Below the pieces are notes generated by a model. It was not told where the DNA came from and made no database searches. It worked only from the letters and a program-made list of their open reading frames with translations. From the NCBI GenBank assembly GCA_963974885.1, contig CAXBEY010000001.1, positions 20,372 through 84,371 on the forward strand: a DNA stretch of 64,000 bases, written 5' to 3'. Made by a program: the position numbers and the translations under genes. Positions 639-22,732 of the stretch are shown here, piece after piece; position 1 is the stretch's first letter; each line of letters opens with the position of its first letter. This DNA is from an uncultured Alphaproteobacteria bacterium (GTDB lineage Bacteria > Pseudomonadota > Alphaproteobacteria > Caedimonadales > UBA9215).

Positions 639-1901
639 ATGACATCTTTTAAGTCTTCTTACCTGCAAGAAGTGCACGCCCGTGGGTTTATCCACCAAGG
701 CACAAACCTTGACGCCCTTGATGAAAAAATGGCTAAGGGATCTGTAACCGCTTATATTGGATTCGATGCAACGGCAACAAGTCTGCATGTGGGAAACTTA
801 GTGCAGATCATGCAACTGAGGCTCCTTCAAAAGCACGGTCACAAACCCCTTGTTTTAATGGGAGATGGCACAACGCGTATTGGTGATCCCTCGGGTAAAG
901 ATGCCTCACGGCAACTCCTCACCCCTGAGAAAATTGACGAAAATGTTGCGGGCATTCAAAAAGTCTTTTCACAATACCTGACCTTTGGAGACCAAAAATC
1001 GGACGCGATGATGTTGCGTAACAGCGACTGGTTGCTCTCCTTAAATTACCTTGATTTCCTTCGGGATTATGGCCGTCATTTTTCCGTTAATCGGATGCTT
1101 TCCTTTGACAGTGTCAAATTGCGTCTTGAACGTGAGCAAAATCTAAGCTTTCTTGAATTTAACTATATGATCTTTCAGGCCTATGATTTCTTAGAACTTT
1201 CCAAGACCTTTAACTGTGAGCTTCAATTGGGCGGCTCTGATCAATGGGGTAATATTGTGAATGGTGTTGAACTCACAAGGCGGGTCTCCTCTAAGGAAGT
1301 TTTTGGGTTAACGGCGCCTTTAATTACAACGGCCGACGGCAAGAAAATGGGTAAATCCGTTGAGGGGGCTATCTGGCTTAATGAAGAGGCATTGCCGACC
1401 TTTGACTTCTGGCAATTCTGGCGCAACACTCAAGATGCCGATGTGGGGCGTTTCTTGCGCTTATACACAGATATCAACCTTGCTGAAATTGCCCGCCTTG
1501 AGAAACTCGAGGGGGCGGACATTAATGAGGCTAAAATCATCCTAGCCGATGCAGCGACAAAGATGTGCCATGGGGAAGAGGCTGTTCATCAAGCTAAAGA
1601 AACCGCCAAGACTCTTTTTGAAACGGGAGGTGCTTCCAACTCTTTAGACAACCTTCCCTTTGTTGAAGTTTCCCGCTCCCAATTGGAGGCTGGCATCCTT
1701 GCCATTGATTTGTTCCGCCAAGCTGATCTTGCGAAAAGCAATGGAGAAGCCAGGCGACTTGTGCGAGGGGGCGGTGCTAAGATCAATGATACAGCCGTTA
1801 ATGATGAAAATATGAGCCTGTCTGTAACGGACTTACAGGACGATTCTTATATTAAATTATCCGCCGGTAAAAAGCGCCATGCCCTTGTAAAAGTCATCTA
1901 A
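639..1901 (+). CDS. tyrS: tyrosyl-tRNA synthetase
   Basis: 420 aa. Class I signatures HVGN (HIGH-type) and KMGKS (KMSKS-type), plus a C-terminal S4-like RNA-binding tail. Colinear with bacterial TyrRS. Confidence 0.95.
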
Positions 1902-1944
1902 AACAAATGTTATTAAGGCGATTTTAAAAAACAGGATGTAAAAG

Positions 1945-2868
1945 ATGACTCGTGTGACCCTACAGGATAAATTAAAATTTATTCTCATTACGGTTGTTGC
2001 TGGCACAGGGTGGTACGTGATTCCATCACAAATTACCCATGTTGGTACGGAATATGCCATTGCTTACCGCATGCTTTTGGCGGGATTGGCCATTGTTTTT
2101 TTTGCCCTCTCTAAGAAAATTTCCTTTCCACGTTTCTCAAGGCAGAGCCTCGGTCTTTTATTAATTTCCGGTATTTTTCTGTATTCACTGAATTATTTAT
2201 TTATCTACCAGGGCTTAAAGCATCTTCCTTCAGGCATTGGATCCCTTGTGATTTCTGCTGTGATTATCCCTAATGCCATTCTGGGGCGCTGGATTTTAAA
2301 AACACCTTTGAAGCCCCAAACCCTTGTTGGAGCTTGTCTATCTCTTGCAGGACTTGCCGTTCTTTTCCCAGGGGACATTTTTGACTTTGATCTCAGTATT
2401 GGGGCAACCCTTGGTTTTTTAGCCCTGTGTTTTAGTCTCTTCTTATCTTCCTTTGGGACGGTGATGACCAGTAAACTCATTAAAGAAGGGGTGAACCTTT
2501 ATTGGGCCACAGCCCTTGCCATGTTATTGGGTGGCACCTTGAGTTTTGGTTTTGGGCTTTATCAACACCAAGAGATTTTGTGGAGCAATGATATGACATT
2601 TATCTCCTTGTTGCTCTATATCGGCCTATTGGTCACGTCCGTTGTTTTCGTATTTTATATGCAACTTGTGAATAAATTTGGCGCGGCAAGTGCTTCTTAT
2701 ATATGGATTATAGCACCGGTTATTGCGTTAAATATATCGTCTATTTTTGAGGGGATGCAGTGGACTTTAGAACGTATTGTCGCCACTGTCATTATTCTTA
2801 TGGGGGGCTGCGTTGCCCTTAAAAAGACCAAGAGAAAAATAAAAATTCCCTCTAAAAGCCCCGTGTAA
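1945..2868 (+). CDS. EamA/DMT-superfamily permease
   Basis: 307 aa with about 10 hydrophobic helices arranged as two EamA-like halves. AGGA lies upstream of the ATG. Confidence 0.7.
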   Translation: MTRVTLQDKLKFILITVVAGTGWYVIPSQITHVGTEYAIAYRMLLAGLAIVFFALSKKISFPRFSRQSLGLLLISGIFLYSLNYLFIYQGLKHLPSGIGSLVISAVIIPNAILGRWILKTPLKPQTLVGACLSLAGLAVLFPGDIFDFDLSIGATLGFLALCFSLFLSSFGTVMTSKLIKEGVNLYWATALAMLLGGTLSFGFGLYQHQEILWSNDMTFISLLLYIGLLVTSVVFVFYMQLVNKFGAASASYIWIIAPVIALNISSIFEGMQWTLERIVATVIILMGGCVALKKTKRKIKIPSKSPV

Positions 2869-3001
2869 TAAGGTTTTTAAATCTTGTTTTCTTTTTTTAT
2901 CATAAAGGGCCTTGTTACCTCCAAAAAAAAGTGTCACCATTTTAATTATTAAGAATTTAAATAAATCTTAATAGAAATGTAAAAAACAGGAGACCTATAC
3001 T

Positions 3002-4780
3002 ATGAAAAAGCAATTACTTAGCCTTTCTTTATCTACAGCACTCTCAACGGCCCTCTTAACAACTTTTCTTCCCACGACAACCTTGCAAGCAAGTTTAGTA
3101 GCAACTTCTTCTAGCAACGATGGTATGGGAGAGAGTGTTGTCGTCAAAACTGTTAATCCTCTGTCAGTTTCGAGGGATATCGGTATTGTTTTCGACCAGG
3201 ATACACTTCCTTCTGATCGTGAGTATGTTATTCATAATAGTATTTTAGAAAGTCTTCAGAGTTATTTTACTATGACAACGGTTGAGTTTTCGAATAAGAA
3301 AGCAGAGTTCACTTTTCGTCCATCAAATGATGGTGGAGACGATGAGTTGGTTATTGATCTTAAAAAAGGTCAAACGTTCTCTCGTGACGAAGAAGAAGTT
3401 GTGGATTCTTTACGCATATCTTTGAAAAAATGGGTTGAAGAGCGCAATTCTTTTGTCAAGAAATATTTCCAGTACCGAGCTACTGCAAGAGATGTGACCC
3501 TTTTAGAGGCTGCAAGCAGTCGTTATACTGGAGAACGCTATAAACTAATGGGTCGATCTGAAAGCCTTGATACTGCCTTAGATGCCACATATACCCGTGT
3601 TATGTCTCAAATAGTCAACCAAACTGTAAAAAATGCTCTAAGGGCAATGCCTCCTATTACAGAAGATTTTAAGACAAGGCGTGATGGTTTATGGATTGCC
3701 CTGGCTGCAGCAACGTTGCCAGAAGATCAGCGTAGTGATGAAATCACCTCCACTGTTAAAGGGAATACTTTGAAACAAACTGCTTTTGAGGCAGTGTACC
3801 GTGGTTTGATTCTTAGCAATGAAGTCTTCTCTGCCTTGATTGCTAATCTTACTTCTAAAGTCCATGGGCTCCCTTATTCACCTAACCGTGATTATCAAAA
3901 CTTACTGGGAGCAGAAGCTGTCCTTGCTATGCGTACGTCCCAACTGTCTTTAGTTGACCCTGATGCTGTTACAGCTCTTTTTGAAAAAAATGCGCAAGCT
4001 CTTACCTTTGAACAAAAAACTTTTGCTGAGTCAAAAATTCGCAATGAGCGTGACCATAGGCTTTTGGCGACAAACTTAGTCCCCCGTAAATTGCTTCGAG
4101 CGCAAGATAGGTTGCTAGCTAAAGTAGCTCTTACCGATGATGAAGCTGATGCTTATGGCAATGCTGGCAGTGATGCTGATAAGAAAAAAGCTATTGTGGC
4201 GACAGCAAAAGCTCGTATTTTAGAAGAGGCGCGCGCTAAGGCACGGACAACTTCTGGTGTTCCAGAGTTAACAGACACAGAAGCCGATAATTGGAATTAT
4301 TATAAAGAGCCTGGTTATGAAGCTAAGCAAGCTAATGTTGTAGCCCTTGCAAAAGTACGCGTTCTAAAAGAAGCAGAAGCGGAAGCCGCAGCTCTTGAAT
4401 TAAAACGCACCCAAGCCCGTGAAGCGTCTGGTCTTAAGTTGACGGATGCAGAGGCCGATGCATATGCGGCGGCTGAAGTTTCTGGCCAGCCTGCTATTGT
4501 TGCGACTGCAAAGGCTCGTATTGAGAAAGAAGAAGTTGAGCTTGCGGCCCTACGTAAACAAGCTCAACAAGAAGAAGAGGCTCGTCTTGCAAAAGAAGCG
4601 TCTGATCTTGCTGAAAAGCGGACGGCTCTACGGGGAAAACTTGGTATCGTAGGTTTAACTGACGAAGACCTCGACAACGTGATGGCTGCGGCAGGCGATG
4701 TAGCGAAGACAGCTATTGTTGATGCTGCCCTAAAGCGCCTTTTAGCTGAGGAAGCAGCAACTTCTTCCAAGGCAGAATAA
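3002..4780 (+). CDS. hypothetical secreted protein with four C-terminal repeat modules
   Basis: 592 aa. AGGAG Shine-Dalgarno upstream of the ATG and a signal-like N-terminus (MKKQLLSLSLSTALSTALLTTFLPTTTLQA). The C-terminal third is Ala/Glu/Lys-rich and helical-looking. I recognise no family. Confidence 0.7.
   Translation: MKKQLLSLSLSTALSTALLTTFLPTTTLQASLVATSSSNDGMGESVVVKTVNPLSVSRDIGIVFDQDTLPSDREYVIHNSILESLQSYFTMTTVEFSNKKAEFTFRPSNDGGDDELVIDLKKGQTFSRDEEEVVDSLRISLKKWVEERNSFVKKYFQYRATARDVTLLEAASSRYTGERYKLMGRSESLDTALDATYTRVMSQIVNQTVKNALRAMPPITEDFKTRRDGLWIALAAATLPEDQRSDEITSTVKGNTLKQTAFEAVYRGLILSNEVFSALIANLTSKVHGLPYSPNRDYQNLLGAEAVLAMRTSQLSLVDPDAVTALFEKNAQALTFEQKTFAESKIRNERDHRLLATNLVPRKLLRAQDRLLAKVALTDDEADAYGNAGSDADKKKAIVATAKARILEEARAKARTTSGVPELTDTEADNWNYYKEPGYEAKQANVVALAKVRVLKEAEAEAAALELKRTQAREASGLKLTDAEADAYAAAEVSGQPAIVATAKARIEKEEVELAALRKQAQQEEEARLAKEASDLAEKRTALRGKLGIVGLTDEDLDNVMAAAGDVAKTAIVDAALKRLLAEEAATSSKAE
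4130..4750 (+). repeat. four diverged intragenic modules LTDxEAD(x10-20)AIVATAKARI/VVALAKVRV/AIVDAALKRL
   Basis: Modules begin at nt 4130, 4267, 4438 and 4655. Modules 1 and 3 keep DNA-level similarity: gctattgtggcgacagcaaaagctcgtatt at 4190 versus gctattgttgcgactgcaaaggctcgtatt at 4493. Confidence 0.8.
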
Positions 4781-4859: not shown

Positions 4860-7800
4860 TTAAAAATGGCGGGCCTTCATGATCTTATAGGCCATGGGAA
4901 TCACAAATAGGGTGAGGAGAGTGCCAAGAAGAAGGCCGCCAACAAGGACAATGCCAATGGCTTGACGGGCTTCGGCACCGGCACCTGAGGATAGGATAAG
5001 GGGAATCGCACCAAAAACCATGGCTCCCGTTGTCATCAAAATGGGGCGCAATCGAAGGGCGGCGGCTTCTTTAATGACGGTATCAATTTCGGCGCCAGCT
5101 TCTTTCATTTTCTGATTGGCAAATTCAACAATCAAAATACCATGCTTTGTAATTAAACCAATAAGGGTCACCAAACCAATCTGCGTAAAGATATCAAGGG
5201 TACGGTCCAAAGCGTAAACAGAGATGAGGGCGCCTAAGACAGCTAAAGGAACCGTAAACATAATAATAAAAGGGTCGGCAAAGCTTTCAAATTGGATGGC
5301 TAAAATGGCATAAACAAAAATGAGGGCTACTAAAATCAAAAGCACCATCATGGATGAGGATTCCTCTAATTTTTTTGCAACGCCGGTAAATTCATGCTGA
5401 ATATCTTCGGGAACAATTTTATCAATTATTTTGCTAAGCCTTTCAATGGCGTCAGAAAAAGTCACATGAGGCGCAAGGGACACATTAAATTGGGCAGCTC
5501 GGAATTGATTATAGTGGCTGAGTTCTTTTGGTGTCACTGTCTTTTCCAAGGTCATGAAATAGGACAAGGGAAAAGGAGTCCCTTCTTCATTAAAGGCATA
5601 AATTTCTTCTAAATGATAGGGAAGGGTTTGGGGTTTTAAGGCTATGGGATAACGCACGCCCTCTTTTGAAAATTCAAGGTGAAGATTTTGATCCATCATA
5701 ATGGCCAGCACATTTGAGATGTGTAAGGGTGTTAGGGTTGTGCTTGCTAGTTTTTCACGGTCAATAACAATTCTAAATCCAGAGGAGTTAAAGCGTAAAT
5801 TATGGTGACAGTCCACAAAGGTGCTTTTTTCTTCTTCACACGCTTTACGTAATTCATCCATTATTTTGCTTAAATTTTCGTAGGATCCAATGGTTAAAAA
5901 CTGTACCGTGATCGCACCATCTTGTGTGGACGTCGCTTCAACCCCTGGAATACCTGAATCCCAACTCCACGGATAAGCTTGAATGGTGGGAACCTTTTTA
6001 ACACGCTGCCGTAGGTCCTCCACAACTTGGGCGGCACTTCGGCTCCGCTCATCCCACGGTTTTAAAGGCACAACAACTTGCCCCCCCCAAGAGCCTGCAA
6101 AGGACAAATAGGTCAGAGCTTCTTTAATATCTTTGACTTCTTTTTCAACATGCTTTAAATAACCACCGAATTCTTCTAAAGACGCTCCATCCAAATAAGG
6201 CACAAAGATACCAACAACCCCGCGGTCTTCCTTTGGCGTGATGGCCTGGGGGATGGTTTGAAACAAGACTATGCAAAGCACTAAAATGCCGACGCAAGCC
6301 CCTGCCATAGCCTTTGGCCATTTGAGAGAAACCCCCAGAGCTTTTTTGTAAAATCGGGTCATCCGGTCAAGACCTCGATCGAAAAACCGAAGGGCTTTAA
6401 AGGAAGAAAGAGCTTGGGGGGTTGCTTTGCTTTCTTTTTTCAAAAGGTAGCCGCACATTAAGGGCGTAAAGGTTAGAGCCACAACACCGGAAACAATGAC
6501 GGCTCCTGCGAGGGTGACAGCAAACTCGAAAAAAATTTGACCAATGGCATCTTGGATAAAAGCAATGGGGATATAAACACTGGCCAAGGTTAGGGTCATG
6601 GCAACAATAGCAAACCCTATTTCCCGAGAGCCGTCCTTTGCGGCTTTTAACGGAGATTTCCCCTCTTCAATGTGTCGGTGAATGTTTTCAAGGACAACAA
6701 TGGCATCATCGACCACAAGCCCCACAGCTAAAACCATAGCAAGAAGGGTAATGGTATTGATAGAGAGTCCAAAGGCAGCCATGAGGGAGAGCACACCCAC
6801 AAGGGACAAAGGGATAGCAACCAAGGGAATAAGGGTAGCTCTGAAATTCCTCAGGAATAAAAAGACAATAAGAATCACCAATAAAATAGCTTCTAAAATG
6901 GATTTTTGAACGGAGGAAATGGATCCTCGAATGAACTTTGTTTTATCAAAGTTTATTTTGACATTAACGCCGTCGGGCATAACACTTTGAAATTGATCCA
7001 TGCGATCGTGAATTTCATTGGAAATATCTAAAGGGTTTCCATCACTGGATTTAATAATCCCTACAAAGGCAACATTTCTTCCACCGGAGTGGACAATTTG
7101 TGACATAACGCCTCGGCCCAAGGAAATGGTCGCAATATCTTTGAGACGCACAACGCTTGTCTTTGTATGGGAAACAGGGATTTCCTTAAGATCTTCGGGG
7201 GAAAGGACCCGCATATCAAGGGTGATGGGAATAGCTTCTTGAAAACGTCCCCCAGGTAAAGAAACATTATGACGCCTTAAAGCGCTTAAAACCCCATTGG
7301 CATCAATACTATGGGTGAGCATCTTTTCCCGATCGAGGGCAACGGTCATGGTGTATTGATCCCCCATGATATTCAGCATTGAGACACCCTTGATGGCCTT
7401 AAGAGAGTTCTTTAAATACAAATTAATAAGGTGGGTTAGCTCAACAATGGAGTGGTTATCTCCGTCAACGGAGATGTAAAAAAACGGTTCTGAGTCTCCA
7501 GATTGCTGACGAATAATAGGGTCCTTTGCTTCCTCTGGGAGAGCCGTCATGGATAAACGCTCCCTCACATTGGATTGAGCCTTGCTGATGTCCACCCCAG
7601 CTTTAAAGGACAGTTCAACAGAGGCTTGGCCATATTTTGAAGAAGAGGAAAGGGTCTCTATGCCCTCAACCCCTGAGAGAGCCTCTTCCAGCTTTGCGGC
7701 AATTTCTGTTTCCACCACATCAGCACTGGCATTGGGATAATAAACTTGCACCGTCAAAATAGGCAGAGAAACTTTGGGATATTCACGCACCCCTAGATTT

Positions 7801-17997: not shown

Positions 17998-18306
17998 ATA
18001 GCCCTTCTTTTATTAAATAGACTTAAAAAAGTATCTTATTGCAAAAAATATTTTTGAGCCCTAAGGGCATGATAAACAGTTCGTTTTCTAATTAGGCAAA
18101 CTTAATAAAAGAAAAGCGTTATCTGCAATGGTAAGTTTTTTGCAACAAAGTCTGAATTTCAATGTAAGATTCTATTAGATAGTTCTGATGTGAAAATCCT
18201 AAAGCGGACGCGTAAATTATTTTCTGGAAGCAGCGTCACATACTAAATTGATTTAACGTTTCTCTTAACATGACATGTCCGTCGTAACTTAAAAAATGGA
18301 GTTAGT

Positions 18307-19221
18307 ATGAAAATAGGTATTCTCTCAAGAAATCCAAAGCTGTACTCAACAAGGCGTTTGGTTGAAGCAGCCAACGCAAGAGGTCACGACGTTGAGGTCG
18401 TTGATACTTTAAAATGCTATATGAACATTACAGCCAGCAAGCCTGCTGTGTATTACAAAAAAAAAGGCTTTAAGGGAAAGTTAGAATTTGATGCTGTTTT
18501 AGGTCGTATTGGGAGCTCTATAACAGCATACGGAACAGCCGTCTTAAGGCAATTTGAAGTTGGTAATGTTTATTGCTTAAATGAATCAATATCAATATCA
18601 AGATCCAGGGATAAGTTGCGTGCTCATCAACTATTGGCACGTAAAGGCATTGATATGCCCATTACCAGCTATGCTCACCAAGCAGATGCAACGGAAGACC
18701 TTATCGAATTCGTTGGGAATGCTCCCTTAATTGTAAAAGTTATGAATAGCACACAAGGAAAAGGAGTATTATTGGCTGAAACAAACAAGGCCGCAGAAAG
18801 TCTTATTAATGCCTTTAGGGACCTCGACACTGATTTTTTGGTTCAAGAATTTATCAAAGAAGCAAATGGCGCTGATATTCGATGTTTTGTCTTAGGGGAT
18901 AAAGTGATCGCTGCTATGATCCGAACCGCCAAAGAAGGTGAGTATCGCTCAAACCTTCACCGAGGTGGATCAGCGTCTGTTATTAAATTAACACCGGAAG
19001 AGAGGTCTATCGCCGTTAAATCTGCCAAGGTTATGGGACTTGATATTGCAGGCGTTGACTTAATTAGGTCTTCACGGGGACCTTTGGTTCTTGAGGTTAA
19101 CTCCTCGCCCGGTCTAGAAGGTATTGAAACAGCAACAGGAAAAGATGTTGCTAAATCTATTATTGAGTATATTGAAAAAAATGCTGTGAAAGGCCCCCAA
19201 AAAACAAAAGGGAAAGGTTAA
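18307..19221 (+). CDS. rimK: RimK-type ATP-grasp alpha-L-glutamate ligase (ribosomal protein S6 modification family)
   Basis: 304 aa. [19 protein letters not shown]-terminus and ATP-grasp motifs ([39 protein letters not shown]). Colinear with E. coli RimK. Confidence 0.9.
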
Positions 19222-20253
19222 ATGTTCAATAATAAAGAATTTGCTGTTGGAGGCGTTTCTATTGCGCCTGGCAAACGTAAGCAAATTGAAATTGAGGTTG
19301 CAAAACTTTACGATTATACAAAGCTAACAATACCCGTCGAAGTTATTCGAGGCAAAGAAGACGGACCCGTTTTGTTTCTTTCTGCGGCCATTCACGGAGA
19401 TGAAATTAATGGTGTTGAAATCATCAAGCGTATTTTGGCTAAGAAAAAAAAACTTTCAAAAATCAAAGGTACATTGATTGCGGTGCCTATTGTTAACGTT
19501 TTTGGTTTTAATAGAAATCTTCGTTACCTTCCCGATCGTCGAGATTTAAATAGGTGTTTTCCAGGCTCAAAAGAGGGATCCCTTGCAGGGCAAATTGCCA
19601 AAATTTTTATGGATGAAATTGTTTTAAAATCGACCCATGGCATTGACTTACACACGGCAGCCCTGCACCGGAACAACTTACCTCAAGTGCGCGCTTGCCT
19701 AGATTCAAAAGAAACCGAAGATTTGGCCATGAGTTTTGGCGTTCCTGTGGTTTTAAATTCCAGTGTTCGGGATGGATCTTTGCGTCAGTGCGCGTCTGAG
19801 GCTGGTGTCAATATGCTTTTGTTTGAGGGGGGAGAGCCCCTTCGCTATGAAGAAAAAATTATTTCTTCGGGCATCCATGGAATTTTGTCAGTTATGAAAT
19901 CCATTGGGATGATCGAAGGGGCAGTGTCCAGCAAAGAAAAAAGACGAAAAGCAGTTTTCATTTCTCATTCCAGCCATTGGTTACGTGCGCCTCACAGTGG
20001 GAGCTTGCGTATTAAGAAACATCTGGGAAACCATGTTAAAAAGGACGAAATTCTAGGTATTATTTCCAATCCTTTTGGAGAAGATAAATATGAAGTCAAA
20101 GCGAAAAAAACCGGTATTATTATTGGTATTGCTACTATGCCCTTGGTGAATAATGGTGATGCTCTCTTTCATGTAGCAACCTTTGAAAACTCAGAACGCG
20201 TCCACGAGCAAGTTGAATTTTTTGATGAAAGAATCGAAGAAAGCCTTTTATGA
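19222..20253 (+). CDS. succinylglutamate desuccinylase/aspartoacylase (AstE/AspA)-family M14-like zinc peptidase
   Basis: 343 aa. Zn-binding HGDEINGVE motif and a downstream DLH motif. The ATG abuts the rimK stop (TAAATG at 19219-19224). Confidence 0.8.
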   Translation: MFNNKEFAVGGVSIAPGKRKQIEIEVAKLYDYTKLTIPVEVIRGKEDGPVLFLSAAIHGDEINGVEIIKRILAKKKKLSKIKGTLIAVPIVNVFGFNRNLRYLPDRRDLNRCFPGSKEGSLAGQIAKIFMDEIVLKSTHGIDLHTAALHRNNLPQVRACLDSKETEDLAMSFGVPVVLNSSVRDGSLRQCASEAGVNMLLFEGGEPLRYEEKIISSGIHGILSVMKSIGMIEGAVSSKEKRRKAVFISHSSHWLRAPHSGSLRIKKHLGNHVKKDEILGIISNPFGEDKYEVKAKKTGIIIGIATMPLVNNGDALFHVATFENSERVHEQVEFFDERIEESLL

Positions 20254-20269
20254 TTCAAAGGAAGGTATA

Positions 20270-20731
20270 ATGATAAGAAAATCAATTATTGGATGCGAAG
20301 AATGGGGGGCCTTAAAAGATTTAAGGATTCCTGCTATTAAAATGCGTATTGATACAGGCGCAAAAACATCTTCCCTGCACGCCTTTAATATTGCAATCCA
20401 CCAAAGGGAAGGTAGGGAATTTGTCACATTTGATATTCACCCCATTCAAAAGAGTCACAAAATCATTCGTCAGTGTCAGGCCGATATTATTGATAATAGG
20501 GTTGTCAAAAGTTCCAGTGGTGATAAACAGCGTCGCTTTGTTATCCTTACTCCGCTTATGATTGGAGAAGAAACTTGGAATATTCAAGTGACTTTAACCA
20601 ATCGAGATACCATGGGATATCGAATGCTTCTTGGAAGAGAGGCCATGGAAAAGCGATTTCTTGTTGATCCCGATCTTTCTTTTTGTAAGGGAGACATCTC
20701 CAAGGAAAATCTTAGAAAACTTTACTTGTAA
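20270..20731 (+). CDS. retropepsin-like aspartic peptidase-fold protein (DUF785, often annotated as ATP-dependent zinc protease), RimK-associated type
   Basis: 153 aa. D-T-G-A signature (RIDTGAKTSSLHA, nt 20351-20362) and MLLGREAM in the second half. AAGGAAGG SD lies before ATG 20270. The ORF-track start at 20183 overlaps the upstream gene and is discounted. Confidence 0.75.
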   Translation: MIRKSIIGCEEWGALKDLRIPAIKMRIDTGAKTSSLHAFNIAIHQREGREFVTFDIHPIQKSHKIIRQCQADIIDNRVVKSSSGDKQRRFVILTPLMIGEETWNIQVTLTNRDTMGYRMLLGREAMEKRFLVDPDLSFCKGDISKENLRKLYL

Positions 20732-20738
20732 TTAAAGG

Positions 20739-20857
20739 CTATAGGGCACCTCTAAAAACTCTGTCTTTTACCAAATTCAGTAAGATGAACCCAATGTTTA
20801 CAAGGGTTACAGACAATACTAAAAGTTTTATTAGGGGTTTTTAGAGGTGCCCTATAG
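20739..20857. repeat. 119-bp element bounded by perfect 21-bp inverted repeats (MITE-like element or long hairpin)
   Basis: CTATAGGGCACCTCTAAAAAC at 20739-20759 and its exact reverse complement GTTTTTAGAGGTGCCCTATAG at 20837-20857, with a 77-nt spacer. It fills the gap between two convergent stop codons. Confidence 0.8.
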
Positions 20858-20874: not shown

Positions 20875-21516
20875 CTATTTTTTCCCCTTAAGACTTTTTT
20901 TCTTATGATTTTTTTGATGTTTTAGCTCATGGAGCGCAAGGATGTGGGCAATACCCCCTGCGGCAATCAAGATGCCGATAATAGTTGCAATATAAACCTC
21001 TATGCCAAATACGTTGTTGAGAGTTCTAAAAGTCCCCAAAACAAAAATAAGAATCCAAAAGACAAAGGAAATCGTGCCGTTATAAAAGTAGACTCTAATT
21101 TTTTGAAGGGACATGCCCTCAAATATGCCTTTTCCAATCTGTTCTCTCAATGTTTGTTGTAGGTTACTATTTAAAAAGATGCCGTTAATGAGCAAAATAG
21201 CAACCATTAAGCTTTTTCCATATATTTTTTGATTACTTAAGGTTTCAGGGGAATTTATTGCATAATAGGCAAGGAACCCTAAGCCAGAGAGAATAAGAAC
21301 TCCGATGGAAATCATGATCACTTTATGTCCAATGGCATATATTTTTGATCTCGAATTCGCACTTCCTTGATAAGCTCTAAACTGGCGTGTACTTGTAAAA
21401 AAATGGCAGCTCCCATGCCAGTAACGGCCGCTAAAGAATGTAAAAAAATAATTGATTCTTTTATTAACATGTAAAAAATCCTTTTTTGTTATTAATATAT
21501 GAATTATACATAGCAA
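20875..21516 (-). CDS. hypothetical integral membrane protein (start uncertain)
   Basis: About 4 hydrophobic helices in the C-terminal 145 aa and a Lys-rich C-terminus. The first 70 or so codons are of doubtful coding quality; an internal Met (MISIGVL...) is an alternative start. Confidence 0.4.
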   Translation of the reverse strand: MLCIIHILITKKDFLHVNKRINYFFTFFSGRYWHGSCHFFTSTRQFRAYQGSANSRSKIYAIGHKVIMISIGVLILSGLGFLAYYAINSPETLSNQKIYGKSLMVAILLINGIFLNSNLQQTLREQIGKGIFEGMSLQKIRVYFYNGTISFVFWILIFVLGTFRTLNNVFGIEVYIATIIGILIAAGGIAHILALHELKHQKNHKKKSLKGKK

Positions 21517-22291: not shown

Positions 22292-22732
22292 TTAACGCAT
22301 AGATGAAAGCCGCTTTAAGAAGGTATCAACGGAGAGAGAGCCAGCCCCCCGAGCGAAAATTGTTCCTAGCATAATAGCCCAAATGAGATGAACCTGAGGT
22401 GTGGGCATAACAATTTGAATGACGGCAGTCATAACCAGAAGGCCAAAGGCGCTAAAACGCCCAAAAAGACCAAGGGCAAGCAGAGTAGAGAGGCCGAGCT
22501 CGCCAGCCGTTCCTAGAACTGCTGCAGTTTCTGGTGATAAATAGGGAACAGGGTGCACTTCCGTGAAGAGAAAAATCGTACTATCCCAGTCATCATTCAT
22601 GTAATTTTGGAATTTTAACCAACCGGATTTGAAAAAGATATTGGCCATGTAAAGGCGGATGGTCAAATCGACGAGGGGTGAGAAATATTTTATAAGGAAA
22701 TAGGCAAAACCTGTTTCTTCTTGTTGACGCAT
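22292..22732 (-). CDS. DoxX-family membrane protein
   Basis: 146 aa with 4 helices and a DoxX-like pattern (FFKSGWLKF ... GRFSAFGLLVMT). Confidence 0.7.
   Translation of the reverse strand: MRQQEETGFAYFLIKYFSPLVDLTIRLYMANIFFKSGWLKFQNYMNDDWDSTIFLFTEVHPVPYLSPETAAVLGTAGELGLSTLLALGLFGRFSAFGLLVMTAVIQIVMPTPQVHLIWAIMLGTIFARGAGSLSVDTFLKRLSSMR

Follow-up and report, generated by a model that had tools for sequence, protein, structure and literature searches.

A rimK-led operon with an AstE/AspA-family hydrolase and a RimB-like protease as a candidate polyglutamylation cycle

Operon layout and surroundings

Within the 64-kb stretch of DNA from an uncultured alphaproteobacterium analysed here (the window), three consecutive genes encode the ATP-grasp ligase RimK, an AstE/AspA-family zinc hydrolase (referred to as AstE-like) and a retropepsin-type protease (RimB-like). 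An intergenic spacer precedes the genes and a short inverted-repeat element follows them:

17998–18306, no strand: upstream intergenic region of 309 bp, the probable operon promoter region
18307–19221, plus strand: rimK, alpha-L-glutamate ligase (ATP-grasp), the 'writer'; 304 aa; NF007764, PF18030, PF08443
19222–20253, plus strand: AstE/AspA-family zinc hydrolase, a COG3608-type 'predicted deacylase'; 343 aa; PF24827
20270–20731, plus strand: RimB-like retropepsin-type aspartic endopeptidase; 153 aa; PF05618
20739–20857, no strand: 119-bp MITE, non-autonomous, IS5-family; perfect 21-nt terminal inverted repeats

The rimK stop codon TAA (19219–19221) abuts the ATG of the AstE-like gene (19222–19224) with zero gap, giving a TAAATG junction, and a 16-nt spacer containing AAGGAAGG separates the stop codon of the AstE-like gene from the rimB-like start. 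The rimB-like reading frame is open from position 20183; its ATG at 20270, preceded by AAGGAAGG, agrees with the public gene call and with where 16 homologues begin. No internal terminator was seen within the three genes, which form one tightly packed operon. Encoded in the neighbourhood are a DedA/VTT protein, a membrane protein, CarD and DoxX. The open reading frames, the TAAATG junction, the motifs HGDEINGVE and D-T-G-A, the spacer and the inverted repeat, all named in a preliminary description of this DNA, were reproduced to the base, and profile scores (NF007764, PF24827 and PF05618) bore out the three family assignments made there.

With a GC content of 0.311, the 309-bp spacer compares with a mean of 0.343 over 19 intergenic regions of the window; its sigma-70-like matches are weak (e.g. 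18270–18297). Alignment with the nearest cassette relative (locus L082) revealed nucleotide conservation solely in the 22 nt that immediately precede the start codon of rimK. No Rfam family was found in the spacer or anywhere else in the 64-kb window and, as the spacer is also unconserved relative to L082, a riboswitch or leader at this position was rejected.

The 119-bp element lies between the rimB-like gene and a convergent minus-strand gene, folds at −50 kcal/mol (z −5.8) and has no second copy in the window. The identical 21-mer of its terminal inverted repeats (TIRs) recurs in >120 metagenome contigs, where TIR pairs are spaced either about 100–170 bp (MITEs) or about 1.26–1.31 kb apart, the longer elements encoding a DUF772+DDE_Tnp_1 transposase. 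TIRs common to DDE-transposase elements, a short and non-coding body, and multiple copies elsewhere identify it as an IS5-family MITE. Its TIRs end in CTATAG, a palindrome that would mask any target-site duplication. The MITE adjoins the system and is no functional part of the triad. A role for the inverted repeat as a cassette boundary or regulatory element was rejected, since only a solitary MITE of the IS5 family is present here and L082 has none at its cassette.

The three protein families

RimK passes the NF007764 equivalog model (427.7 bits; cut-off 331) and matches PF18030 and PF08443 with 131.8 and 224.5 bits, respectively. It aligns over its full length with the Pseudomonas RimK structures 7QYR/7QYS (411 bits), and with E. 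coli RimK (5ZCT/4IWX) at 376 bits. The modification of ribosomal protein S6 has been on record for E. coli since 1989. To our knowledge, among bacteria only RimK–RimB has been demonstrated to reshape the proteome through reversible polyglutamylation of a ribosomal protein; we know of such studies in Pseudomonas only. The S6 gene, rpsF, is absent from the 64-kb window; among the related loci, it was seen as an N-terminal fragment only, in L014.

The RimB-like protein matches PF05618 with 115.5 bits. Its best NCBIfam model is RimB (NF052261; 117.3 bits, below the 200-bit equivalog cut-off), followed by RloA3 (71.6 bits), RloA (58.8 bits) and RloA2 (50.1 bits). The D-T-G-A signature is encoded by GAT ACA GGC GCA at 20351–20362, and D28-T-G-A-K32, N111-R112-D113, R118 and G122-R123 are invariant among 17 RimB-like homologues. 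The closest solved structures are those of RloA (9G58/9G59), with 2PMA also matched. By inspection, the N-terminus MIRKSIIGCEEW leads directly into the domain and a signal peptide is absent. The protein is classed as RimB-like by its PF05618 domain, its D-[ST]-G motif and basic residues, its presumably cytosolic location and its place in a rimK operon.

In Pseudomonas, RimB is an aspartic endopeptidase that strips polyglutamate from RpsF and stimulates RimK (PMC7343187, PMC11957791), including in the synthesis of free poly-Glu, for which the authors discuss consequences for osmolality and the pool of glutamate (PMC11957791). RloA enzymes cleave poly-Glu in vitro, and paralogous RloA proteases are required for hypo-osmotic tolerance (PMC12239564). 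The preliminary description was right that Pseudomonas RimK has accessory proteins. Its further statement that the function of the triad is experimentally undefined does not hold for the retropepsin partner, in view of these RimB studies, and stands for the AstE/AspA-family member only: this is the sole part of the triad still uncharacterised, the activities of RimK and RimB being already known from Pseudomonas.

The AstE-like protein carries HGDEINGVE at residues 58–66 (nt 19393–19419) and matches PF24827 (AstE_AspA_cat) with 118.2 bits (gathering score 25). In MEROPS, this superfamily belongs with the M14-related zinc hydrolases. It failed the curated models for DoeB (TIGR02994; 82.6 bits, cut-off 402.7), AstE (TIGR03242; 23.0 bits, cut-off 305.65) and ASPA (NF002601; 30.9 bits, cut-off 180). 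Foldseek matches of its AF2 model (pLDDT 82.8) comprised 3CDX and DoeB 6TWM, both at E about 1e-22, as well as CphZ 8EIN, AstE, ASPA and CCP5. The protein is 60–88% identical to its relatives across phyla, and the residues that bind zinc (H58/E61/H144) and the catalytic E202 do not vary. Likewise invariant are R101/N110/R111, along with many further arginines; R101/N110/R111 appear to align with R63/N70/R71 of aspartoacylase, which hold the free alpha-carboxylate. The family-specific invariant residues R150, R157, R183, R188, R208 and R255 correspond in the alignment to L, A, D, D, S and F in DoeB, whose substrate is cationic, and these extra arginines suggest a polyanionic substrate rather than a small mono-acid. 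Because the zinc-binding and catalytic residues are invariant and six arginines replace neutral or acidic DoeB residues, the AstE-like protein is probably a glutamate-releasing exopeptidase on alpha-oligoglutamate that would free single glutamates.

RimK neighbourhoods are reportedly discussed by Iyer et al. in 2009. Our literature search found no paper on the role of the AstE-like gene beside rimK, nor any on RimK together with succinylglutamate desuccinylase or on S6 modification together with aspartoacylase; for RimK with COG3608, COG4067 and DUF785, it yielded only a 2008 paper on RimK and DUF785 and an unrelated paper on a cyanobacterial hydrogenase.

Linkage to rimK across genomes

Gene neighbourhoods were surveyed in 80 species-representative genomes harboring a close AstE-like relative, with the AstE-like gene as the anchor. 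A rimK gene was located ≤6 kb from it in 55 of the 80 genomes; in 47 it was the immediately preceding gene in the same orientation, and the full triad, in variable gene order, was present in 46. Neptuniibacter pectenicola, Thiomicrorhabdus cannonii, Methylophaga lonarensis, Alteromonas lipotrueiana and Vibrio europaeus are among the cultured bacteria with the triad. This linkage is far above chance and covers at least ten phylum-level lineages, confirming the conserved association with rimK expected in the preliminary description, and the rimK-linked loci are scattered over the whole AstE-like family tree. The commonest arrangement in this AstE-like-anchored sample has a third conserved component, a zinc hydrolase, that is unmentioned in the experimental literature searched.

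In L082, the RBS of rimK and the stop codon of rimB mark the exact limits of the conserved cassette. In locus L084, MATCAP, another C-terminal peptidase family, fills the RimB slot beside RimK and the AstE-like protein. As 25 of the 80 AstE-like relatives had no rimK within 6 kb, and a sample of four RimB-like genes, drawn from the RimB side, consisted entirely of orphans, the parts of the triad can work, or at least persist, separately. No recurrent partners of stand-alone AstE-like genes were found beyond a lineage-specific synteny in Halomonadaceae. The AstE-like gene was also detected on some megaplasmids or chromids of Vibrio, Photobacterium, Salinivibrio and Acaryochloris and on haloarchaeal replicons. 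Among the plasmid records with this gene, 32 of 35 were non-mobilizable, and a search for phage carriage found no relatives in IMG/VR.

A possible polyglutamylation cycle and its alternatives

We consider it moderately probable that the three-gene operon encodes a polyglutamylation cycle, in support of the logic of a writer plus two potential erasers or processors put forward in the preliminary description. The proposal builds on the layout of the genes, the families they belong to, their intact catalytic residues and the conserved rimK linkage, all described above; the activities of RimK and RimB would carry over to the triad proteins by analogy with Pseudomonas, and we infer the whole function of the AstE-like enzyme in the cycle. 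RimK, using ATP, would add alpha-linked glutamates onto a C-terminal Glu to form poly-alpha-glutamate, the substrate being S6 (RpsF), free glutamate or both. The RimB-like retropepsin, as a homodimer, would cut within the polyglutamate tail or peptide and, like Pseudomonas RimB, probably also binds and stimulates RimK. The AstE-like zinc enzyme, translationally coupled to RimK, would hydrolyse the amide bond before the C-terminal glutamate, either taking single residues off the tails or, as seems likelier, converting the oligo-glutamates released by RimB to free glutamate. Its translational coupling suggests that it may form a complex with RimK, comparable to DoeA–DoeB. Should the AstE-like enzyme prove to be the exopeptidase so far lacking, it would close the cycle by returning glutamate to the pool, set tail length jointly with RimB, and constitute a bacterial counterpart of the TTLL/CCP writer–eraser pair of tubulin.

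A possible, if rather doubtful, alternative is that the module acts mainly as an ion/turgor device rather than a ribosome switch, poly-alpha-Glu buffering glutamate, Mg2+/K+ and osmolarity together with Mg2+ and mechanosensitive channels. Glutamate is the main counter-anion of the cytoplasm. CorA, MgtE or MscS-family genes directly flank 19 of 57 rimK-linked compared to 1 of 25 stand-alone loci (Fisher p = 0.004), unrelated control loci gave 0 matches in 479 kb, and a Vibrio europaeus plasmid carries the operon DGC-rimK-astE-rimB-mgtE-corA-mscS-usp. However, the triad in the window has no adjacent CorA, MgtE or MscS gene, such channel neighbours are missing in two thirds of the linked loci, the neighbourhood is circumstantial, and a Mg2+ link could equally run via ribosomes, the principal store of Mg2+. 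Marine and halophilic taxa feature prominently in the distribution. Enrichment of rimK (K05844) has been reported in brackish genomes (PMC10219603), and both the discussion of RimB-stimulated free poly-Glu in relation to the glutamate pool and osmolality (PMC11957791) and the role of RloA in hypo-osmotic tolerance (PMC12239564) fit an ionic function. In its most specific form, which we put forward tentatively and at low confidence, the AstE-like protein would be a bacterial alpha-polyglutamate carboxypeptidase, an activity described in no paper of the searchable literature, and the cassette a cycle of poly-alpha-glutamate synthesis and breakdown, linked to CorA/MgtE-mediated Mg2+ uptake and to MscS-type turgor release, i.e. 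a glutamate/counter-ion capacitor of marine and halophilic bacteria and not solely an S6 modifier. Through its repeated association with channels for Mg2+ and with mechanosensitive channels, the module provides a concrete, testable ionic/osmotic-stress context for a modification of unclear purpose.

As to the origin of the operon, the preliminary description had read the AT-rich spacer and the inverted repeat as marks of horizontal acquisition. A recently acquired genomic island appears improbable, and that reading of the spacer and the repeat did not hold. The GC content of the triad genes is slightly low (0.385–0.407 vs. a window mean of 0.433), but this amounts to z-scores of only −1.0 to −1.8, the housekeeping neighbour carD is as low, and the GC content of the spacer is typical of the genome. 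In favour of an island, the flanks are unrelated in L082 and in 80 other genomes, and synteny with the relative L088 ends at glyQ, so that the triad-bearing region is not common to L088. For L088, L090 and L091 alike, common synteny begins only at glyQ/argS. Against an island, neither a tRNA, an integrase nor a flanking direct repeat was found when looked for, and the single MITE sits on one side of the cluster only. Moreover, cassette identity to L082 (RimK 90%, AstE 88%, RimB 77%) resembles housekeeping identity to L088 (GlyQ 91%, ArgS 88%, GlyS 82%), and this equal divergence fits vertical descent within the clade. The case for a recent island is weak. On an evolutionary timescale, transfer of the cassette is still plausible, given its scattered distribution and unrelated flanks even in an 88%-identical relative; horizontal spread of rimB–rimK has likewise been inferred by Little et al.

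Still less probable is that the AstE-like protein is an ordinary small-molecule deacylase, acting for instance on an N-acetyl/N-succinyl amino acid or ectoine intermediate, that merely shares the operon or feeds glutamate to RimK: its closest characterised relatives (DoeB, AstE, ASPA) act on N-acyl amino acids and a quarter to a third of the family is not beside rimK, but it scores far under all curated cut-offs for these deacylases, doeA (the partner of DoeB) and ectoine genes are missing from the locus, the protein shows strong conservation across phyla, its gene is coupled to rimK in translation, rimK linkage extends across the entire family tree, and the extra invariant arginines suggest a polyanionic substrate.

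Read as a polyglutamylation cycle, the operon can be set beside several known systems. Compared to Pseudomonas RimABK, it lacks RimA, an EAL phosphodiesterase, and no EAL domain was found among the neighbours; it places rimK first and has an AstE/AspA-family enzyme between rimK and the protease, which falls below the NCBIfam RimB equivalog cut-off. Common to both the triad and Pseudomonas RimABK/RimBK (Little 2016; Grenga 2020; Little 2025) is the co-transcription of RimK with a PF05618 D-[ST]-G protease. P. aeruginosa RloABC similarly combines a PF05618 protease with an ATP-grasp protein. However, RloA has a signal peptide, unlike the triad protease, and pairs with the membrane pseudo-transglutaminase RloB, whereas the ATP-grasp partner in the triad is a bona fide RimK.

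The AstE-like protein itself shares its fold (TM 0.72–0.78), zinc ligands, catalytic Glu and two-domain architecture with the uncharacterised 3CDX and with DoeB/EutE, an N-acetyl-L-2,4-diaminobutyrate deacetylase. It is only 21–25% identical to these proteins, differs from DoeB in its six invariant arginines and in residues close to the catalytic Glu, and has rimK rather than doeA as its genomic partner. The cyanophycin pathway follows the same logic, in that the ATP-grasp enzyme CphA builds the polymer, cyanophycinase fragments it and the AstE/AspA-family CphZ (8EIN/8EIP) finishes the degradation. The polymer there is beta-Asp-Arg, in contrast to alpha-Glu in the triad, and with an identity of about 14% between CphZ and the AstE-like protein, the analogy is a functional one and does not imply membership. 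Finally, eukaryotic tubulin TTLL, together with CCP (M14) and MATCAP, likewise unites an ATP-grasp glutamate writer with metallocarboxypeptidase erasers acting on C-terminal acidic tails. The tubulin deglutamylase CCP5 is only a remote fold match to the AstE-like protein (TM about 0.4), and the eukaryotic system differs in substrates and cellular context.

Gene content and the properties of each enzyme

ORF analysis of the window revealed three genes in the same direction that together fill positions 18307–20731:

18307–19221 (+), gene 1, rimK; its TAA stop codon directly abuts the ATG of gene 2
19222–20253 (+), gene 2, AstE/AspA-family zinc hydrolase; TGA stop codon
20270–20731 (+), gene 3, RimB-like; 153-aa ORF from the ATG at 20270

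The gapless junction of the first two genes (19221/19222) and the positions of the HGDEINGVE and D-T-G-A motifs are as given in the preliminary description, and its calls of gene 1 as rimK, gene 2 as AstE/AspA family and gene 3 as retropepsin-like (DUF785) agree with the profile searches below. The spacer between genes 2 and 3 measures 16 nt and includes AAGGAAGG; the start of gene 3 is backed by 16 homologue N-termini and the public gene call. No terminator-like site between the triad genes was found in a search of the window. The window is a segment of a 113-kb TARA Oceans scaffold, and its ArgS shares 89% identity with an 'Alphaproteobacteria bacterium' protein and 55–57% with Rhodospirillales; the host is an uncultured marine alphaproteobacterium.

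Gene 1 contains both Pfam domains of RimK, scored 427.7 bits with the NCBIfam RimK equivalog model (cut-off 331) and aligned along its entire length with crystal structures of Pseudomonas RimK (411 bits; E. coli RimK, 376 bits), so that on sequence grounds its annotation would read 30S ribosomal protein S6--L-glutamate ligase. rpsF is absent from the 64-kb window.

Gene 2 belongs to the AstE/AspA superfamily (PF24827, 118 bits), scores far under the curated cut-offs for DoeB, AstE and aspartoacylase, and carries only generic names in public annotation. The best 120 of its >8000 homologues (62–88% identity) stem from sources including Rickettsiales, Gammaproteobacteria, Scalindua and SAR324. 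Alignment of 23 sequences revealed as invariant the zinc ligands H58, E61 and H144, residue E202, at the aligned position of the catalytic Glu in DoeB and 3CDX, and R101, N110 and R111. The last three presumably correspond to R63, N70 and R71 of human aspartoacylase (aligned to an approximate sequence of that enzyme), which hold the free alpha-carboxylate of the substrate. To our knowledge, all characterised superfamily members cleave the amide bond before a C-terminal amino acid with a free carboxylate. An AlphaFold model (pLDDT 82.8) gave 3CDX and DoeB as predicted structural matches (TM 0.72–0.78), with CphZ, AstE, aspartoacylase and, remotely, the tubulin deglutamylase CCP5 ranking lower. 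At positions 150, 157, 183, 188, 208 and 255 the gene 2 family carries invariant or near-invariant Arg; the DoeB residues there are L, A, D, D, S and F, and the side chain of the DoeB substrate is cationic. As judged from the alignment, the charge-reversed, Arg-rich pocket of gene 2 would fit glutamate or oligo-glutamate, and this new element of the triad is predicted to be an alpha-polyglutamate carboxypeptidase. Halophilic archaea (Natronococcus, Haloferax, Natrinema and others) also carry AstE-like relatives (30–33% identity) on megaplasmids and secondary replicons; RimK-DUF785 fusions are found in Halobacteria (PMC2530865).

Gene 3 is a PF05618 protein whose top-scoring NCBIfam model is that of RimB, a retropepsin-like endopeptidase (117 bits), with RloA1-3 scoring lower; as NCBI's strict cut-off is 200 bits, it is not a RimB member by that measure. 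D28-T-G-A-K32, N111-R112-D113 and L-L-G-R123 are invariant among 17 homologues (49–76% identity). RloA is secreted, whereas gene 3 has no N-terminal extension able to serve as a signal peptide and is therefore likened to cytosolic RimB; the closest solved structures are RloA proteins, together with 2PMA. Pseudomonas RimB is an aspartic endopeptidase (D31 being essential) that targets at least five consecutive glutamates, strips them from RpsF and boosts the production of poly-alpha-glutamate by RimK (PMC11957791; PMC7343187), and RloA also cuts poly-Glu, via a basic channel (PMC12239564). Based on best model, invariant residues, lack of a signal peptide and these activities, we call gene 3 RimB-like, a probable functional equivalent of RimB. 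Public names of such genes are inconsistent and partly wrong, e.g. 'RimK/LysX family protein' or 'ATP-dependent zinc protease' (L086, a Vibrio europaeus plasmid locus, 6028–6489, and homologue protein names); proteins of ~155–200 aa are sometimes named 'ribosomal protein S6--L-glutamate ligase'.

Linkage across genomes and flanking genes

A search of GTDB (one genome per species) with the gene 2 family alignment yielded 80 loci. The conserved linkage to rimK expected in the preliminary description was borne out: rimK lay within 6 kb of the AstE-like gene in 55 of the 80; in 47 it directly preceded that gene in the same orientation (gaps mostly 2–60 nt), and the full triad was present in 46. 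The most frequent order was rimB-rimK-astE (31 loci); that of the window, rimK-astE-rimB, recurred in one Rickettsiales MAG, one alphaproteobacterial MAG and three Alteromonadales. Among the carriers are Alpha- and Gammaproteobacteria, Bdellovibrionota, Nitrospinota, Nitrospirota, Desulfobacterales, Spirochaetales, Omnitrophota and Fraserbacteria. No rimK was found near the AstE-like gene in 25/80 loci, part of these 'unlinked' cases being truncated contigs. In a neighbour-joining tree, linked loci spread throughout the gene 2 family and unlinked ones grouped in a few derived clades (Halomonadaceae, Wenzhouxiangella and a few singletons). Two RimK types, 60–80% and 46–51% identical, adjoin the AstE-like gene.

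One lineage lacks RimB and encodes a MATCAP-family metallocarboxypeptidase (PF08014, 328 bits) upstream of rimK-astE (L084, 5813–9026; L085, 5379–8592). This may represent a swap of one C-terminal peptidase for another and reinforces the pattern of rimK paired with C-terminal peptidases. RimB-like genes sampled independently were orphans in 4/4 cases (L212–L215, gene at 6001–6490 in each; 51–56% identical to gene 3), neither rimK nor an AstE-like gene lying within 6 kb. They come from Marinomonas, a zetaproteobacterium, a Rickettsiaceae MAG and a marine taxon of very wide distribution; in the last of these the gene adjoins the potassium uptake genes trkH-trkA.

CorA, MgtE and/or MscS-family (MscK-like) genes directly flanked the module in 19 of 57 rimK-linked loci (L010, L020, L024, L026, L030, L033-L036, L040, L045, L046, L049, L055, L056, L059, L062, L067, L072), in many cases co-directionally and at short distances, vs. 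1 of 25 stand-alone AstE-like loci (Fisher p = 0.004) and none in unrelated control loci totalling 479 kb. Examples are MgtE-rimB-rimK-astE (Nitrospinaceae MAG), astE-corA-mscK (Neptuniibacter) and the Vibrio europaeus megaplasmid NZ_CP064859 (174360–182465, L086), where genes for a diguanylate cyclase, RimK, AstE-like, RimB-like (annotated 'RimK/LysX family protein'), magnesium transporter (MgtE), CorA, mechanosensitive channel (MscS) and universal stress protein all share one strand. This flanking suggests a tie of the polyglutamate cycle to Mg2+ and turgor homeostasis; possible routes are the ribosome and a role of poly-Glu in buffering glutamate and counter-ions. As the triad in the window has no CorA, MgtE or MscS-family neighbour, the link is a lead outside the local finding.

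Origin of the cassette and the inverted repeat

The preliminary description had proposed horizontal acquisition, pointing to the AT-rich spacer and the inverted repeat on either side. Neither bears this out: GC content of the 309-bp spacer (0.311) is close to the intergenic mean (0.343), and the repeat is a one-sided, single element. Nor does composition set the triad apart from its flanks (gene GC 0.385–0.407; adjacent carD 0.402; gene mean 0.433, SD 0.027). With no tRNA, integrase or bracketing repeat found at the triad, no marker of recent insertion was seen. Over evolutionary time, the cassette behaves as a discrete unit: 80% nucleotide identity to its nearest relative (L082) begins exactly 22 nt upstream of the rimK start and stops where the rimB-like gene ends, between unrelated flanks; this agrees with Little et al. 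The window flanks were common to none of the 80 surveyed genomes. Cassette protein identities to L082 (90/88/77%) equal those of housekeeping genes to L088 (91/88/82%), a relative syntenic with the window only from glyQ onwards. At exactly this synteny break, on the corresponding side of glyQ, L088 carries a BufA1-MbnB-HvfC bufferin operon (1364–3305). The DoxX protein adjoining carD (22292–22732, −) is weakly HvfX-like (52.5 bits; cut-off 80); HvfX is a maturation protein for copper-binding RiPPs.

The repeat itself:

20739–20857, 119-bp inverted repeat; MITE of an IS5-family insertion sequence, 21-nt arms CTATAGGGCACCTCTAAAAAC

The arm has exact matches in >120 metagenome contigs from widely differing habitats (sludge, peat, marine, gut), and these often lie at the ends of contigs. 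Paired arms lie ~100–170 bp apart, or ~1.26–1.31 kb apart enclosing a DUF772+DDE_Tnp_1 (IS5-family) transposase (full-length elements of ~1.3 kb in L103, L114, L134, L157 and L162), identifying the window repeat as a MITE. It is single-copy, lies between convergent genes and does not bound the cassette. The gene downstream (20875–21516, −) has no Pfam or NCBIfam match and the most deviant composition of the neighbourhood (GC 0.343, z = −3.3), and the public gene call breaks it up into two ORFs of 146 and 50 aa; possibly this is a degraded or small gene for a membrane protein.

A proposed three-enzyme polyglutamate cycle and known systems

The best-supported model is a three-enzyme polyglutamate cycle. 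RimK would build alpha-glutamate chains, attached to S6 and/or free, a RimB-like dimer would cleave inside them, and the zinc enzyme would give back glutamate by taking it off the C-terminus of tails or, with greater probability, of the oligomers set free. The finding would be of greater interest were the predicted carboxypeptidase function or the tie to Mg2+ and turgor confirmed.

Described arrangements comprise RimK alone (enterobacteria), RimB-RimK, RimA-RimB-RimK and fused RimBK or RimK-DUF785. We found no literature naming RimK together with this AstE/AspA partner; Iyer et al. reportedly noted such RimK neighbourhoods in 2009. The triad is a genuine and widespread form of the Rim system, as yet unexplored by experiment. 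A direct precedent for its division of labour is the cyanophycin pathway, in which an ATP-grasp polymerase is followed by cyanophycinase and then by the AstE/AspA-family dipeptide hydrolase CphZ.
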